Shown: piece by piece, positions 33,809 through 47,651 of the stretch
Position numbering within the stretch: position 1 is the stretch's first letter
How the letters are laid out: each line of letters starts with the position of its first letter
Assembly: GCA_017409215.1 (NCBI GenBank)
Contig: JAFQTD010000034.1
Span: 431-64,430 of the forward strand
Length of the DNA stretch: 64,000 bases
From: Alphaproteobacteria bacterium
GTDB lineage: Bacteria > Pseudomonadota > Alphaproteobacteria > Rs-D84
Direction: 5' to 3'
Translations under genes and position numbers: made by a program
The notes under the pieces: generated by a model
Database searches by the model: none
Seen by the model: only the letters and a program-made list of their open reading frames with translations
Told to the model about the DNA's origin: nothing

Positions 33809-33883
33809 ATTTGTGAAAAAATACGCTTGTATTAGCACGTGATATATGATAAAATAATCTGTAAAGAGAAGGGAAATTTAGCT

Positions 33884-36028
33884 ATGAAAAGATTTGTTGC
33901 AGTACTAAGCAGTTTATTGGTTTTACCCGCATTTGCAGAGGTTGCGCCCATAACCTATGATGAATTTTATGACGAAGAAGTCGCGGATTATGTGGATGAT
34001 TCTGATGCAGAATCAGCCGATATGGTTGCGGATGAAACGACAACGGTTGTGGAAAAAAGCGCGCCTGTTGTTCAACCATCGCGCAGGGGTGTACGTACTA
34101 CTGCAAATTCTGGACGTTCGGTTTCGCGTGTGTTGCCTTCATCTGTGACGAATGCGAATAATGTATCGAAACGCACTGCGTCGGCTGCTCGTGTAATGCC
34201 CAGTTCGCGTACTGCGACAACGCAACGCGTTGCGGCGCGTACTGCAACCACACAAAATGCACAGTCGCGTGGTACGGTTTCCCGCACTGCGACACGTTCA
34301 AACACGCGTGTTGGTGCGACCGCTGCGCAACAGATTGCCCAGACACGTCGTGCAATGCAGGGGGCACCGTCTGTAAATAGTGCTCGTGCATCTATTGTTC
34401 AAACAGATACTGTTAACACACCGCTTTATACTGGACGTGTTGCAATGCGTTCTGGTGCAGTGCGTGCACGTGTTCCATCGGCTGCGTCTGCTGTGTCGGC
34501 ATCTTCTGTTGTGACTGAAACGGTCGAAGAAACTGCAGTGTCAATGGATGAATTGGCGCAAATCACAGATTTTTGCAAGGCGCAATATACACAATGTATG
34601 GATAATTATTGCAATGTGCTTGACGATAATCAGGGACGTTGTTCTTGTTCTAAAAATTTAAAGAATTATGCAAAAACAGAAGAGGCATTAAAAGCCGCGA
34701 CTGAGGCATTACAAGACGTCGCACAACAGATTCAATATATTGGTTTGACCGGTGACGAAGTTGAAATATTGTTTACGCAAACTGTTGCCGAAGATCAAAT
34801 GCAATCATCATCTGATAATACCCAGTTGAAAAGTGATTTAGACAAAATTAAAAACCTGATTGTTGATGTCAAGACAGGGTCTGCATCATCAACTGAAACA
34901 GGAATGAGTTTTGATTTGTCTGGCCTGTTGGACTTCAGTGTTGACAGTACTGGTTTTGACTTGTCATCACTGTTTGGTGGCGGTCAGGCGAACACATCCA
35001 GTATCAGCAATCAACGTGGTGAACAATTGTACAAGACCGCGACTGCACGTTGCAAGGCGGCGGTTCTGTCGGATTGTCAATCCCAGGGGGTTGATATCTC
35101 GATTATCACAAACGCGTATGATTTGGAAATTGACAAACAGTGTTTGGCATACGAACGTAAATTGACAGACAGCAACGAAGAAATGGGTCGCACAGTACGC
35201 AATGCAAAAAGTGTTTTGCAACGCGCGCGCTTGATGGTTGCCCAGAACAAGAATGTTTATCAAGATATGCGCAGCTGTGTAAATGCACTTGATTCATGTA
35301 TGCAAGACGACTTTGTCTGTGGTACAGACTATGAAAACTGCATTGACCCATCCGGTAAATATATCGTAAACGGCGAAGTCGTTGTTGGTTCAATGCCAGG
35401 ACAAGTTATTGATAATAATAAACCAGGTGCGCCTGGATTCTATGGCACAGGGCTGTATGCCACATGGGAATATGATGAATCAAATGCATGGGATGATGAT
35501 GGAAGTCTAGAAGATTTTATTAACAGTACTGTAACGTCTGCGTTTCCAACTGAGTCTGGTACCAACATTTCTAAGTTCCTGCAAAATAAAATCGGCTATA
35601 ATGACAGCAGTGACGGCAGAAACTATGGTATGTGCATATCGGAATTGAATAAATGTCAGAATTTGACATACAATTCCGACGGTAAATACAAACCCGATAA
35701 TCCAGTGGTCAAGGAATATCTGCGCCGCACATTGATTCAAATCAAGAATATGCAGGATAACATCTTGGCATCCTATGCAGAAAATTGCATACCAGAGGTT
35801 AAAGCCTGCCTGACGCAAAACGGCTTTGATTTTGTGGATTACATCACTGACTTAGAACCATCTAAGTCGTCACCTACAAACAATGTTGCGATGAATGCGT
35901 GTAGACAGCAAATCATAACTTGCATGTCTGTAAATGGTGATGCAGAGGCTGATCCAACACCGAATTCAATGTTGAAATGGGTAAATAGCGCAACTGGTGC
36001 AACAAAGGCACCAACGCCAGAATCGTAA
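33884..36028 (+). CDS. Secreted 714-aa protein with an acidic stretch, an Arg/Thr/Ser/Ala-rich repeat region and an 18-Cys C-terminal region
   Basis: Start taken at MKRFVAVLSSLLVLPAFA (signal peptide, RBS agaaggg). Degenerate R-T-A-T-T-Q repeats; Cys clusters such as FCKAQYTQCMDNYCNVLDDNQGRCSCS and SCVNALDSCMQDDFVCGTDYENC. Confidence 0.7.
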   Translation: MKRFVAVLSSLLVLPAFAEVAPITYDEFYDEEVADYVDDSDAESADMVADETTTVVEKSAPVVQPSRRGVRTTANSGRSVSRVLPSSVTNANNVSKRTASAARVMPSSRTATTQRVAARTATTQNAQSRGTVSRTATRSNTRVGATAAQQIAQTRRAMQGAPSVNSARASIVQTDTVNTPLYTGRVAMRSGAVRARVPSAASAVSASSVVTETVEETAVSMDELAQITDFCKAQYTQCMDNYCNVLDDNQGRCSCSKNLKNYAKTEEALKAATEALQDVAQQIQYIGLTGDEVEILFTQTVAEDQMQSSSDNTQLKSDLDKIKNLIVDVKTGSASSTETGMSFDLSGLLDFSVDSTGFDLSSLFGGGQANTSSISNQRGEQLYKTATARCKAAVLSDCQSQGVDISIITNAYDLEIDKQCLAYERKLTDSNEEMGRTVRNAKSVLQRARLMVAQNKNVYQDMRSCVNALDSCMQDDFVCGTDYENCIDPSGKYIVNGEVVVGSMPGQVIDNNKPGAPGFYGTGLYATWEYDESNAWDDDGSLEDFINSTVTSAFPTESGTNISKFLQNKIGYNDSSDGRNYGMCISELNKCQNLTYNSDGKYKPDNPVVKEYLRRTLIQIKNMQDNILASYAENCIPEVKACLTQNGFDFVDYITDLEPSKSSPTNNVAMNACRQQIITCMSVNGDAEADPTPNSMLKWVNSATGATKAPTPES

Positions 36029-42889: not shown

Positions 42890-45370
42890 TTATAACAACG
42901 GCGGGAAGCAGTCGCCACCGGCCTCTGGACAGCAATTGAAACCCATTTCACCCATATCTGTATAGATTTCACCTGCACAGCAACCATTTTCATCTGGTAA
43001 ACTGCCATCCATACAGGTCAGTGCCGTATCTTCTGCAGCTGGCGCTTCTGTCACAGGGTTTTCGTATGGATTAACAACAGTGCCGTCATCGTTATATTGT
43101 ATCCCCAGAATTTCTTCGTTAAACTGTTGTGTTCCTTCGCCACCCAGTTCTTGAATCTTTTTCTGATACTGTTTCGTTTGGTCTTCAGTATAGGTCTTAT
43201 ATTGTAAAGCTTTCTTTGATTGATAGCTTTGCGATTGGCACCAGAACAGCAGTGTTTGATAAGAATAACCACCACATGCCGCATTGTTAGCATTAGTATT
43301 TTTACGGCATTCTTCAATTGGTCGGCACTGTCCCGATACTTCATCGCACTCACAAAAGTTCAATGTTTGAAACGCTCTCGATTGTCCCATCCATTCCGGT
43401 GATTCATAATCAATTGGGTCGAAAGCATGCATTCCTTTGCCCGTTGAACGTCGCGATCCGTTATCGTATCCCAAGGCGCATTTTTTCCCACTATTTGTAT
43501 CGTCACCACATGATGCGACCAAATCCACAGGTGAATATACGGTTATACGTGTACCTGCGGCAATTGTAAATGGCGGAACCGAACTGTTCATCATATCCAG
43601 CATTAATTTTTGTGCAACCGCATTCCACGCGCTAATAATTTCAGACTTTGCTAACTCAGATGAACGCACTGTTCCACTTTGAACAACTGTATTGTTATCC
43701 AGGTCAATCTGGTTAACAAACGCATCCGCCACTGGATTAATCAGGTTAATCGCCGCAGGAACAAAAGAAGTCAACATTGGCATAAAGAATTGTTCCAGAT
43801 AGTCTGTACTGCCACGTCCCAGAACACCTTCACGTCCTTGTGCGTCACCAGAAAAAGGATCGTTATTTCCTTCTCCTGTAAAATTATACTCCATCCCATT
43901 TGGTAAGACGAACTGGTACCATTTTATCGACATACGCCCGATTGATGCGTATGGCCCGGGCAACTTGCCTGTCACATACCCCAGCATTAATGTCCCAGCC
44001 GGTATAATAACATTGCGTCCTGAATCAGAATAAACGTTTCTATCAACAGTTGCGCGCACTGGCAAGAAACTGTTTTCTAACGCTTCGGGGTCTGCACGCA
44101 CCTCTGACACAATTGTTGCAGGAATTGGTTTATATTGACGTAATATGAATTGTCTGTCGTATGGTCGTGTTGGTCTTAATCTGTCTTCTCCAGACCCCAG
44201 ATATTCGTCTACATCAATTGGCGCTGCTGGCTTTACAATATCTTGACCTGATGATAACTCACGCCCCATTGTTCCAGTAGGTGTTGAAGGGGTATCGCTT
44301 TGTTTTGCACGAATAACTTGTTTTATTGCGGGTCTCATTTTTAATTCAGGCAACACACCACTATTTACCACCGACAAACCGATATGTTCTGCATCTGTTC
44401 CGATTTTTTTACCACTGTCATCTGTGATGATACCATTGTCTGGATTATAAGTCCCTTCGGCATTGGTACAGTCCTTGTCCGCAAAAGAATGATAATAATA
44501 CGCACCACCCGATGGCTTTACCCACCCGATTTGTTTGCCTGATGTTCCGTATGCAGGGAATGCAAAATCTGAACATCCATCAGGAATCACAATTTCAATA
44601 TCTTTCTTTGCTTTTTTTGCAGGCTTTTTAATTGCCGGTGCCAATGCATTAACAGATTTTTTGACGTTTTCCTTTACAGGCTCTGGTTCTGGCTCTGGTT
44701 CTGGTTCTTCCACAGGTTCTGGTTCAAAATCAAGTTCTTCTTCTGGCTCTTGATTTACGAATGGCTCTTCCTCTGGTTCTTCCGCTGGTTCAGGTTTTGG
44801 TTCAGGCTCTGACACAGACATTGGCACAGGGGTTGGTTCTTTGATTGGTGCTTGCGCCCCCAGTGTCAAAACGATTTTAGATTCTTTTTTCATTGTTTGT
44901 GGTTCTTTTACGTCATGCCATTCGACGAACAAAGAAACGTTTGTGACGGGCTGAACAGTGGTTGGTTCATATTTCAAAAATATTTTGCACCCAATTGTTT
45001 TATTAATGGGCTGGATTACAGTGCAATTCTGCTGTACGTTTAACCCGTTAATTTCTGTATAATTATTAACCGCCAAGACATTCACATCCGCACTTGCAGT
45101 TATACTGATTTCTTGATTTTTTGTGTCACCAACCAAGACTTCAGCCCAGTTGATGATATCAGGTTCGATTTTTATTTCTGCTGTTGCCTTTTCTACATCA
45201 TTCAAGTTGGCTTTTTTATTGCTATCATCGCCAAACAATAACATCAATAATATCAACACCAACACAAACGCAGTCAGCATCAACAGCCATTGCACGCGCT
45301 TTGGCATTCCCTGTGTCAAACCCGCCAGTTTTGTTTTCAGAACATTAAACTTTTCTTTTATCTTTGCCAT
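42890..45370 (-). CDS. virB10: VirB10/TrbI-family T4SS protein, enlarged (826 aa)
   Basis: N-terminal TM, Pro/Glu-rich linker (PEPKPEPAEEPEEEP...EPEPEPEPEPV) and a TrbI core (VIIPAGTLMLGYVTGK...IKWYQFVLPNGMEYNF...DAQGREGVLGR...TIAAGTRITVYSPVDL). It follows virB9. Confidence 0.8.
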   Translation of the reverse strand: MAKIKEKFNVLKTKLAGLTQGMPKRVQWLLMLTAFVLVLILLMLLFGDDSNKKANLNDVEKATAEIKIEPDIINWAEVLVGDTKNQEISITASADVNVLAVNNYTEINGLNVQQNCTVIQPINKTIGCKIFLKYEPTTVQPVTNVSLFVEWHDVKEPQTMKKESKIVLTLGAQAPIKEPTPVPMSVSEPEPKPEPAEEPEEEPFVNQEPEEELDFEPEPVEEPEPEPEPEPVKENVKKSVNALAPAIKKPAKKAKKDIEIVIPDGCSDFAFPAYGTSGKQIGWVKPSGGAYYYHSFADKDCTNAEGTYNPDNGIITDDSGKKIGTDAEHIGLSVVNSGVLPELKMRPAIKQVIRAKQSDTPSTPTGTMGRELSSGQDIVKPAAPIDVDEYLGSGEDRLRPTRPYDRQFILRQYKPIPATIVSEVRADPEALENSFLPVRATVDRNVYSDSGRNVIIPAGTLMLGYVTGKLPGPYASIGRMSIKWYQFVLPNGMEYNFTGEGNNDPFSGDAQGREGVLGRGSTDYLEQFFMPMLTSFVPAAINLINPVADAFVNQIDLDNNTVVQSGTVRSSELAKSEIISAWNAVAQKLMLDMMNSSVPPFTIAAGTRITVYSPVDLVASCGDDTNSGKKCALGYDNGSRRSTGKGMHAFDPIDYESPEWMGQSRAFQTLNFCECDEVSGQCRPIEECRKNTNANNAACGGYSYQTLLFWCQSQSYQSKKALQYKTYTEDQTKQYQKKIQELGGEGTQQFNEEILGIQYNDDGTVVNPYENPVTEAPAAEDTALTCMDGSLPDENGCCAGEIYTDMGEMGFNCCPEAGGDCFPPLL

Positions 45371-45405: not shown

Positions 45406-46950
45406 TTATTGTAATCTAACGACACTGCAACTTGTGCCACTAAATTTCAGCATTTTATCGCACAGTTTTTGCGCCGTATCAATACTTGCAAACGGCCCGA
45501 TACGCAGGCGATACATTCTGGCGCTGGTTGATGCGGCACCCAAATCACCAACCCCCTGTGTATCAACGGAATAGAATACCATATCTTCGTATGGTGTTAA
45601 CAACCCCTGACCATCTTCACCACTAAATTTAGCCAGCAACATTGCCCAATAATCATCCAGTGCCTTAACGGACGTATCTGATTTTAATTCCACTGCGACC
45701 CCAACTTGGTTGCTGGAAATCAGTGGTATATTTGTCTGTGGCAGGTATGCGCCCGCAGTATTGCGTTGTTGTGGCAACATATTAACGACACTGCCCGACG
45801 ATTGTACTGTATTCTGTGGCATGCCATAAAATCCCGCTGGTGTATAATACCCCGCGCCTGTCATTGGGTTAACAGTTTGTGTATTTCCCATAAATACAGG
45901 TGACCCTGTATAATTTGTTCCCATACTCATTGCGGCCATACTGTCGGTGTATGCGATATTATTCAAAGATTGACCAGACAACATACTTTGTGCGACGTTG
46001 GCCTCTGCCAGTGCCATAACAGATGCAGTATCGGCAATCAAGAATGGTTTTTCACGTTTCTTGATACAGACGATACGCTGACCGCTGCGTAAAACCATAT
46101 CTCCGACCGCCTCGACAATTAACAGTCTGCCGTCTTCCCCGTCTGTGCGGAATCCAACAGGGGATTCGCCACCTTCGACCAACAGGGAAACCACAGGTCT
46201 TTGTGTCATCGAAATAACCTTGTCACCAAAGTCAATATATGTAAAGATTCTGTCGCGCCATACGCGTTCTGGTGCGATAACATAATCGTCTGGGTTTGGA
46301 ACAAAGATATCTAAATCAAATCTAAATTCAGATGGGTCGATTTTCATAGACTTAATCCAACCGTAATCTTCGCCATCTACCCCGACAACATTTGATGTGG
46401 TTGGCGCTGCCTTGAATATAGAACGTGCCCCCCCAGATGTTTTGCCAGTTGTTCCCATTGCGACTGGCAGACTGCCATTCCCATCCAGCACAACATCGAC
46501 CTGAGAATACATAATTTCGCTGGCATTACTTGGGTGTGCCTGTAAATAAAAGATGTATTTATTCCCAGATTTGCCGGTCACAATCATATTTGTATCAGAA
46601 CCCTGATTGCCTTGCTCGGGCGAAATAAACATTGTTCTATCGCCTTGTGTTGTGTCAATCTGGAATTGTCCAGTATCACCTACGATTGCATCCTCAATCT
46701 GTTCGCCGTTTGGCAACGTGACCATTGTCACCATTCCATTGCGCAATTTTAATGGTAATACACTGCCTGGGGACCAAGCCAATTGTGCATAGCCTGGTTT
46801 TATACTGCCGTCAACCATATTGGCATTTGGATTATCCCAGGCCTCTTGTATCCCATATGGCTCATTATCATTAGAATACGCAGGTAATGAAACCAGTCCC
46901 ATCAAACAAAAAACAGAAACGCTAAACTTTAATTTTCTTAAAAAAACCAT
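45406..46950 (-). CDS. virB9: VirB9/CagX-family T4SS protein with a C-terminal SPOR-like module (514 aa)
   Basis: Signal peptide (LVSLPAYS). VirB9 N-domain (LKLRNGMVTMVTLPNGEQIEDAIVGDTGQFQI) and C-domain (DRIFTYIDFGD...PVVSLLVEGGESPVGFRTDG..LLIVEAVGDMVLRSGQRIVCIKK). Tail MYRLRIGPFASIDTAQKLCDKM. Confidence 0.8.
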   Translation of the reverse strand: MVFLRKLKFSVSVFCLMGLVSLPAYSNDNEPYGIQEAWDNPNANMVDGSIKPGYAQLAWSPGSVLPLKLRNGMVTMVTLPNGEQIEDAIVGDTGQFQIDTTQGDRTMFISPEQGNQGSDTNMIVTGKSGNKYIFYLQAHPSNASEIMYSQVDVVLDGNGSLPVAMGTTGKTSGGARSIFKAAPTTSNVVGVDGEDYGWIKSMKIDPSEFRFDLDIFVPNPDDYVIAPERVWRDRIFTYIDFGDKVISMTQRPVVSLLVEGGESPVGFRTDGEDGRLLIVEAVGDMVLRSGQRIVCIKKREKPFLIADTASVMALAEANVAQSMLSGQSLNNIAYTDSMAAMSMGTNYTGSPVFMGNTQTVNPMTGAGYYTPAGFYGMPQNTVQSSGSVVNMLPQQRNTAGAYLPQTNIPLISSNQVGVAVELKSDTSVKALDDYWAMLLAKFSGEDGQGLLTPYEDMVFYSVDTQGVGDLGAASTSARMYRLRIGPFASIDTAQKLCDKMLKFSGTSCSVVRLQ

Positions 46951-46973: not shown

Positions 46974-47651
46974 TTAGTTGATTTTGTAAAAAACGCTATC
47001 AAGTGGATCGCCATCACCTTCGACGATTTTGTATTCACTGACACGCAACCCCAATGGGTTATCGATACGTCCTGCCGTATCTATCTCTGTATCACCGATT
47101 TCTTTTAATTTGATTTGAACGGTATAGTTTTTGGCGCTGTTTGTTAAAACGTCCCCATTAATATCGGTACAAAAATAGCGAAAGTTGATTCTGTATGCAT
47201 TTTCAGACGCAAAGTACATCATTTTATCTTCATACGACACATGGCACGAGAAGTCAAAATCTGACGTCGTTCCCATAATTCCCTTGAACATTTCGGTATT
47301 GATAAAGTCCGCATAAACATCTTCTGCTGACATTGCGCGCACTTTACCATTCCAGATATTCTGCATAGTTTCTGTGTTGTTAAACACTTCGTTCCTGTGT
47401 CTAATATATTCACGAATAAAGGCGCGTTTGTACAATTCAATATTTTTATCATTGTTTGCTGTTGACATTTCAACCAGCCTTACTGTCTTAGCACTAGATG
47501 GTTCTGTCAATAAAAAGAATATCTGTGGTCTGTTCAGCGGGAAAGTTTTTATCAGCGCAATCAGCAAACCAACCAGCACAACAATTGCAGTTGCGCACAC
47601 AAAGACCAGCAGTCTTGATACTAAAATCGGCGGTTCTACGCGTTTTGACAC
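46974..47651 (-). CDS. virB8: VirB8-family T4SS protein
   Basis: 225 aa with a single N-terminal TM, an NTF2-like periplasmic part with FIREYIRHRN, and the C-terminal NPLGLRVSEYKI motif (compare NPLGFQVTSY). First gene of the operon. Confidence 0.8.
   Translation of the reverse strand: MSKRVEPPILVSRLLVFVCATAIVVLVGLLIALIKTFPLNRPQIFFLLTEPSSAKTVRLVEMSTANNDKNIELYKRAFIREYIRHRNEVFNNTETMQNIWNGKVRAMSAEDVYADFINTEMFKGIMGTTSDFDFSCHVSYEDKMMYFASENAYRINFRYFCTDINGDVLTNSAKNYTVQIKLKEIGDTEIDTAGRIDNPLGLRVSEYKIVEGDGDPLDSVFYKIN

Follow-up and report, generated by a model that had tools for sequence, protein, structure and literature searches.

Why should a VirB10, the subunit of the type IV secretion system (T4SS) that runs from the inner membrane to the outer-membrane pore, go on for another 208 residues after its barrel is complete, and why should so many of those residues be cysteine? 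The question is raised by the virB10 gene (P0001) in a 64,000-nucleotide stretch of the small genome of a gut alphaproteobacterium (Candidatus Enterousia, order Rs-D84; assembly GCA_017409215.1, contig JAFQTD010000034.1, positions 431 to 64,430), here called the window, whose coordinates are used throughout (Table 1). No other T4SS subunit is known to us to span both membranes and form the outer pore as VirB10 does, and the structural work known to us has been almost entirely on short VirB10s that end at the barrel. As judged from sequence comparison, what is new here is a VirB10 whose tail, undescribed before and confined to one family, is closed by a portable six-cysteine knot; its function is one that we infer.

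The end of the family domain is well marked. The match to TrbI scores 51.5 bits, the cut-off being 35, and as it leaves out only a few positions of the profile (it covers 4-184 of 188) the domain can be taken to end at about residue 617 (...AAGTRITVYSPVDLV), so that an open reading frame (ORF) of 826 residues runs about 208 residues past the canonical end. The original prediction had claimed just this, together with 14 cysteines in the extension, a count borne out by translation of 42893-43516 on the minus strand: they lie at residues 621, 631, 673, 675, 682, 688, 699, 711, 786, 797, 798, 813, 814 and 821. The tail is 6.7% cysteine, where a crude proteome of this genome has 1.46% and the first 618 residues of VirB10 have four cysteines in all.

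A word-seeded HMMER search gave 932 protein clusters homologous to VirB10, the best 120 of which are 780-837 residues long, 50-93% identical to the query and nearly all matched over 99-100% of it. In a scan of one genome per species, 289 species had a relative; the best 80 loci, from uncultured gut Alphaproteobacteria and many of these named Candidatus Enterousia, were examined, and in the 65 where the barrel end could be located by motif the frame runs unbroken from the barrel into a tail of 191-233 residues, ending ...GCCxGExYTDMGxxGFNCCPxxGGDCFPPxx. The same architecture is found in five further genera of the family, and so in 70 of 70 relatives overall. The same continuous frame in 65 loci and five genera excludes a missed stop or a frameshift that, through an artefact of assembly or annotation, joined a separate downstream gene to virB10, the outcome which the original prediction had set down as fatal to it; the same is seen in over 900 protein clusters drawn from independent assemblies, no evidence in favour of an artefact was found, and its probability is next to nil. 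Among shorter matches that might have been stand-alone copies of the whole tail, P0124, P0129, P0132 and P0148 look like truncated VirB10 gene calls and P0131 looks chimeric.

The tail can be divided into a variable spacer and a near-invariant terminal knot, the latter no less conserved than the barrel. The distinction rests on column identity across 64 full-length homologues and on an AlphaFold2 (AF2) model in which 65 sequences were used to predict the tail by itself, with a mean predicted local distance difference test score (pLDDT) of 77. The spacer begins with a cysteine loop in a region of low identity (0.36 over residues 618-664), and the first 45 or so residues of the tail are poorly defined in the model (pLDDT about 50-60); a helical core, with helices at tail positions 47-54, 86-97, 101-123 and 130-135, and a proline-, glutamate- and alanine-rich linker follow. 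The knot is modeled as a beta-hairpin with pLDDT of 83-88, and its six cysteines are invariant in every relative, in the 65 loci and the five further genera alike. Nowhere does the tail have a hydrophobic segment. That the extension is uncharacterized, as was suspected from the start, agrees with the searches: the tail matches no Pfam family at E<=10 and nothing in NCBIfam, phmmer finds no match to the tail in the Protein Data Bank (PDB), no PDB sequence at E<=10 is retrieved with a knot profile, and Foldseek with the tail model returns nothing significant (best E=3.9 in the PDB and 1.3 in BFVD). A full-text literature search combining VirB10, C-terminal extension and cysteine retrieved extensions only on VirB7, VirB8 and VirB2.

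The way in which the cysteines have come and gone in evolution is informative. Ten are invariant in the 65 loci (residues 621, 631, 673, 711, 786, 797, 798, 813, 814 and 821), and the number in the tail is always even, with 12 in 36 loci, 10 in 28 and 14 in one; in the five other genera it is 10, 10, 10, 8 and 6. Those that vary are seen only as pairs. In tail numbering, 70 and 81 occur together in 27 sequences, 54 and 81 in five, 70 and 86 in two, and an inserted column with 81 in one, while 28 have no variable pair; two sequences, one of them the VirB10 of this window, add the pair 57 and 64 to 70 and 81. In genus g13 (G068) C55 and C93 are both absent, and in genus g17 (G099) C3 and C13 as well as C55 and C93 are all gone, leaving the six knot cysteines alone. 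Pairwise gain and loss, with counts that stay even, implies disulfides, and the bond map that evolution implies for this VirB10 would be C621-C631, C673-C711, C688-C699 and C675-C682, with three further bonds within 786-821. The tail is thus probably disulfide-stapled. A membrane-anchored DsbA-like protein of thioredoxin fold with a CGYC motif is encoded elsewhere in the genome (G000 contig C26:11779-12294, minus strand), and by a crude classification of ORFs those with a signal-peptide-like start are biased to even cysteine numbers (79:52, p=0.02) while cytoplasmic-like ORFs are not (151:146). Extracytoplasmic topology, cysteines that evolve in pairs and in even number, and an oxidoreductase in the genome are all found, as for a disulfide-bonded periplasmic domain, the bonds themselves being predicted.

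The knot turns out not to be confined to VirB10. When the tail was compared by phmmer with 1.84 billion representative proteins there were 209 matches, and those that extended over the whole tail were to VirB10-sized proteins or truncated calls of them. The last 45 or so residues, on the other hand, also matched proteins of three other kinds: short ones of about 70-100 residues that consist of a hydrophobic anchor and a knot; signal-peptide proteins of about 180-270 residues with one to three knots; and bitopic proteins of about 650-850 residues in which a large N-terminal region without signal peptide is followed by one transmembrane helix, a long acidic linker rich in proline, valine and glutamate, and the knot. 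The canonical spacing C-x10-CC-x14-CC-x6-C is kept in 100 of 158 distinct copies, and in nearly all carriers the last knot ends 1-7 residues, usually two, before the stop codon, though internal tandem copies exist. By predicted topology every knot carrier places the knot outside the cytoplasm. A distant match in the representative library, P0199 (255 residues), has four tandem repeats 'CADGSLPDVNGLCPDGNPPP' that keep just the first cysteine and the second cysteine of the first CC doublet, a hint that these two pair in the knot.

The genome under study has four carriers, all with the knot C-terminal. Besides VirB10 there is a 205-residue signal-peptide protein (G000 contig C13:25838-26455, plus strand) whose knot is a variant, PNKYGCC...FACCP...CFPPIQ; a 75-residue mini-protein (C13:26559-26786, plus strand) made up of a hydrophobic anchor, a 13-residue tether and the knot; and an 838-residue bitopic protein (C36:50878-53394, minus strand). 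The genes for the 205- and 75-residue proteins adjoin as a conserved cassette, and the same pair occurs in many congeners. The largest carrier has a conserved N-terminal region that lacks a signal peptide and includes a coiled-coil-like stretch, then one transmembrane helix, an acidic proline-, valine- and glutamate-rich linker of about 290 residues and a divergent C-terminal knot; its overall layout resembles that of VirB10 or TonB, and no significant Pfam match was obtained with its relatives (P0163). The three carriers other than VirB10, on contigs C13 and C36, lie amid unrelated-looking genes and show no linkage to T4SS genes.

The distribution of the knot has a sharp boundary. With the knot profile, two to four copies per genome were found in 36 of 36 congeneric genomes, and each of the five other genera of the family has the knot, almost exclusively on VirB10; it was found in none of 24 genomes of five sister families and in none of about 398 other Alphaproteobacteria, representing about 306 genera. 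Since VirB10 is the universal carrier it is probably also the original one. VirB10 itself has a far wider distribution, for of 81 genomes sampled from the order 80 have it, and the VirB10s of sister families also extend past the barrel, though unlike those of the Enterousia family they have no knot. In one sister family the protein ends in a bare C-x10-C loop of about 20 residues, which resembles C621-C631 of the Enterousia family; in another the tails are acidic, free of cysteine and roughly 20-110 residues long; and in a third they are of about 120 residues with 0-2 cysteines, one of them ending ...DETLDCF. As sister tails extend past the barrel in different ways, the cysteine-rich tail is, on this comparative evidence, a family-level innovation at a position that tolerates additions.

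Where the tail lies is the crux for its function. In T4SS cores the outer-membrane cap is formed by a two-helix antenna inserted in the VirB10 C-terminal domain, with the connecting loop facing outward (PMC4182333; PMC6536674), and the VirB10 barrel makes up the entire inner wall of the O-layer in the periplasm, VirB9 and VirB7 being wrapped around it (PMC4182333). The original prediction had taken the C-terminal region of VirB10 to form the cap, so that a module attached there could be exposed, a premise that finds no support, since the cap is the internal antenna, here residues 523-594, which precedes the tail; the tail follows the last barrel strand. Because the antenna is internal and the tail is without a hydrophobic segment, the tail should start on the periplasmic side. 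The best reading, which we infer and regard as somewhat better than evenly balanced, is that the tail has a docking or structural role in the periplasm, to which the near-invariance of the knot across species from many animal hosts, and the occurrence of a knot 13 residues from an inner-membrane anchor, both point. If that anchor is not cleaved, the knot of the mini-protein is held at the periplasmic face of the inner membrane. The tail would then be a family-specific accessory domain fused to the last VirB10 barrel strand outside the cytoplasm, most likely with disulfides. In such a scheme the membrane-anchored DsbA-like oxidoreductase would form seven disulfides after membrane insertion, and the outer-membrane core complex would carry, as an added decoration, about 14 tails suspended from its periplasmic O-layer. 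The spacer would keep the knot at a distance, and the knot, by docking with a conserved partner in the envelope or with further knots, would tie VirB10 and the other knot-bearing proteins to one periplasmic site.

That the tail instead reaches the exterior of the outer membrane and binds a partner cell, as an adhesin or host-contact tip, was the original suggestion, and it has its attractions. A contact function would make biological sense for a lineage with a reduced genome and presumed dependence on other cells (PMC12306168) that has kept VirB10 almost throughout its order, disulfide-rich domains are typical of extracellular proteins, and the middle of the tail is variable (0.36-0.42), as adhesins often are. 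But the part of VirB10 that spans the outer membrane is the antenna and not the C-terminus, the tail has no membrane-spanning segment of its own, and 14 folded domains of 23 kDa should not be able to pass a cap opening of about 20 Å with a constriction of 10 Å (dimensions from PMC4182333). Moreover the knot, the likeliest binding part, is nearly invariant (0.82) across species from many hosts, and it is found also on proteins of the inner membrane, one of them bitopic and one with only a 13-residue tether, so that a surface tip is quite improbable. Much the same low probability attaches to the tail as a lumenal plug or lining of the O-layer chamber. With VirB10 as the entire inner wall (PMC4182333), the shortest path from its C-terminus may well enter the chamber, and the flexible segment of about 45 residues that opens the tail would permit this, yet by our estimate 14 copies of 23 kDa, about 320 kDa in sum, would take up roughly the whole of a chamber as large as that of the pKM101 O-layer and obstruct the path, and a plug does not account for the presence of this knot at the end of three unrelated envelope proteins. 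Of the original interpretation, then, a cysteine-rich, extracytoplasmic and uncharacterized extension is upheld, while the pore-cap premise and the adhesin tip find no support; the suggested link with a neighboring cysteine-rich protein (714 residues in the original prediction, 729 residues over 33839-36028) was rejected, the best BLASTP match to the tail having E=3.6.

A different kind of doubt concerns the cysteines, which might bind metal (zinc, an iron-sulfur cluster or copper) in place of forming disulfides, making the knot metallothionein-like or cluster-binding. Vicinal CC motifs and six invariant cysteines within 36 residues are in keeping with this, as are the anaerobic habitat and fermentative metabolism of the lineage (PMC12306168). 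However, cysteines outside the knot have been gained, lost and relocated by twos, on occasion with a neighboring position replacing one partner, which is the signature of a disulfide and not of a four-ligand site; every carrier puts the module outside the cytoplasm; and the DsbA-like protein and the even-cysteine bias of exported-like proteins have to be reckoned with. Metal binding is consequently very unlikely. Neither DsbB nor VKOR was detected in this 95.7%-complete genome, which counts in favor of metal and is also the first of several points that weigh against periplasmic docking of a disulfide-stapled tail: the lineage is reportedly without respiratory chains (PMC12306168), so re-oxidation of the DsbA-like protein is hard to account for. 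The argument from the short tether is weakened if the hydrophobic segment of the mini-protein is a cleaved signal peptide. With respect to the O-layer wall the tail may lie inside the chamber or at its periphery. The full-length AF2 monomer (pLDDT 54.6, with 26-54 in the barrel) gives no reliable domain arrangement and, its scores being so low, is unusable for placing tail against barrel; Foldseek with it recovered the Ig-like domain alone. Lastly, the docking partner is purely hypothetical, and the other knot carriers are not encoded beside T4SS genes.

A bolder version of periplasmic docking, which we hold to be possible though unlikely, is that the knot is a family-specific address module, ancestral on VirB10, and that three further Enterousia envelope proteins acquired it to dock at the VirB10 site, building a disulfide-locked contact organelle. 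The three would be the VirB10-like bitopic protein, with its large cytoplasmic domain, the secreted protein with one to three knots and the 75-residue mini-protein. If so, this would be a new way to recruit accessory subunits to a type IV secretion machine, and the result would be an enlarged, disulfide-locked outer-membrane complex in an obligately partner-dependent bacterium.

Table 1. Features of the virB8-virB9-virB10 operon and of the VirB10 protein, in window coordinates
Feature	Coordinates	Strand	Remarks
virB8, first gene of the operon	46974..47651	-	225 aa; Pfam VirB8 38.6 bits
virB9, upstream of virB10 in the operon	45406..46950	-	514 aa; Pfam CagX 82.4 bits; C-terminal SPOR-like domain (SPOR 25 bits)
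virB10 ORF (P0001)	42890..45370	-	uninterrupted 826-aa frame and stop; Pfam TrbI match
N-terminal transmembrane anchor, aa 24-47	45230..45301	-	hydrophobic helix in AF2 model; W28, L30, A34, F35 and I40 invariant
Ig-like (PapD/ASH-like) beta-sandwich, aa 60-175, outside the tail	44846..45193	-	AF2 pLDDT ~80-87; Foldseek PapD-like/ASH E=2e-5
Conserved beta domain, aa 263-331, outside the tail	44378..44584	-	column identity 0.78; AF2 pLDDT ~75-81
TrbI/VirB10 beta-barrel, aa 405-617	43520..44158	-	Pfam PF03743 aa 412-615; NCBIfam aa 405-617
Antenna, predicted outer-membrane pore	43589..43804	-	two AF2 helices, aa 523-558 and 571-594, with 12-residue loop
C-terminal extension, aa 619-826	42893..43516	-	14 Cys; translates to exactly the 208 residues of the original prediction
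First Cys loop, C621-x9-C631, immediately after the barrel	43478..43510	-	both Cys invariant in 65 loci
Variable helical core, aa 665-757	43100..43378	-	AF2 pLDDT mostly 87-95; column identity 0.42; paired Cys gain/loss; predicted staples C673-C711 and the lineage-variable pairs C688-C699 and C675-C682
Pro/Glu/Ala-rich linker, aa 758-785	43016..43099	-	low pLDDT, 65-71; column identity 0.42
Terminal six-Cys knot, aa 786-826	42893..43015	-	C-x10-CC-x14-CC-x6-C-FPPLL-end; column identity 0.82

The rest of the protein also has features of its own. Downstream of the membrane anchor comes an Ig-like domain that has a cysteine pair (C116, C128) and a weak match to the NCBIfam model 'choice-of-anchor D' (E=0.004), followed by a proline- and glutamate-rich stretch (residues 176-262). 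Between this linker and the barrel is a second conserved domain, 'CSDFAFPAYG...GTYNPDNGIITD...GTDAEHIG', which has no Pfam match at E<=10 and whose cysteines C266 and C301 are both invariant. Column identity is 0.77 in the barrel and reaches 0.90 in the antenna, among the most conserved regions of the protein; the assignment of the antenna is an AF2 prediction of low pLDDT in the monomer model, with its role taken from PMC4182333 and PMC6536674. For VirB10s of Xanthomonas type the antenna is described as rather variable next to the remainder of the C-terminal domain (PMC6536674).

The gene is the third of a tight operon in the order virB8, virB9, virB10. Profile score, bitopic topology, operon context and antenna, the last predicted only, all place its product in the TrbI family, and a profile search of the whole genome (1.13 Mb) finds a single VirB10 (TrbI 55.1 bits). 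The match to the NCBIfam model T4SS_VirB10 (NF038091), at 46.3 bits, is well under the 220-bit equivalog cut-off, and on profile scores this VirB10 is a divergent member of the VirB10/TrbI superfamily and not of that equivalog. Other contigs of the genome encode VirB3-VirB4, VirD4 and a VirB11-sized ATPase; a search with Pfam TrbL for VirB6-like proteins gave no match. Enterousia and the order Rs-D84 have reduced genomes in which most biosynthetic pathways, and respiratory chains too, are missing, and they probably depend on other cells; the report describing this makes no mention of a T4SS (PMC12306168).

An abundance of cysteine-rich proteins seems to mark this genome as a whole. Several further ORFs exceed the tail in cysteine content, with 17-31 in a span of 208 residues (G000 contigs C18:130783-131430, C1:252-9476, C9:45546-49256, C36:28352-38800 and C21:885-3059), and they include very large proteins, of 1368 and 3482 residues.

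Though the general understanding of T4SSs is unchanged by a tail whose function is reasoned rather than seen, there are grounds for pursuing it. Every genome of one entire family of gut Alphaproteobacteria, uncultured, genome-reduced and presumed to live at the expense of other cells, has retained a T4SS. The 41-residue knot is a candidate for a new Pfam-type domain family and a clonable handle for finding what the machine attaches to in an organism that cannot be cultured, and the disulfide map, derived purely from evolution, is one that mass spectrometry can check.

How the tail stands with respect to known systems depends on which part is compared. With the canonical VirB10/TrbI proteins (Agrobacterium tumefaciens VirB10, TraF of pKM101, TrwE of R388 and Xanthomonas citri VirB10; PDB 3JQO, 7O3J and 6GYB) it is the framework that is shared: N-terminal anchor, proline-rich linker, TrbI barrel, two-helix antenna, and a gene that likewise follows virB8 and virB9. 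Similarity to the solved structures is marginal (E=0.003-0.18 against PDB sequences), and the canonical proteins have about 380-410 residues (406 in the 6GYB chain, 395 in the 7O3J chain) as against 826 here, the additions being the Ig-like domain, the cysteine-pair domain and the 208-residue cysteine-rich tail. Canonical VirB10s stop a few residues after the barrel. For the knot by itself, a resemblance of shape is offered by the stacked beta-hairpin modules of granulin type, where CC doublets also flank a beta-hairpin; the cysteine spacing differs, neither of the Foldseek matches (E=5.8 and 7.0), which are to granulin A and to its N-terminal subdomain, is significant and no PDB profile match was obtained, so that a granulin-like module is rejected and the shape analogy alone is kept. 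In one lineage several exported proteins unrelated to one another have this short conserved domain at their very C-terminus, and in that the knot is like the C-terminal sorting domains (PEP-CTERM, GlyGly-CTERM, MYXO-CTERM and the T9SS CTD). Unlike them it is followed by neither a hydrophobic helix nor a basic tail, the carriers ending after the last knot cysteine with FPP and two residues and no hydrophobic segment, and it occurs also in internal tandem copies; with the signature helix and basic cluster absent and no NCBIfam sorting model matching, identity with such a sorting signal was discarded. Lineage-specific extra mass on the outer-membrane core complex is known from X. citri VirB7 with its C-terminal N0 domain and from the accessory proteins of the Cag and Dot/Icm systems, and VirB7 of the Xanthomonas-type T4SS is much larger than usual (PMC6536674). 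The extra domain here differs from these in being on the C-terminus of VirB10, in its predicted richness in disulfides and in having no detectable structural relative; even so, such lineage-specific decorations of the outer-membrane complex, the enlarged Xanthomonas VirB7 for example, may be its closest functional analogues.

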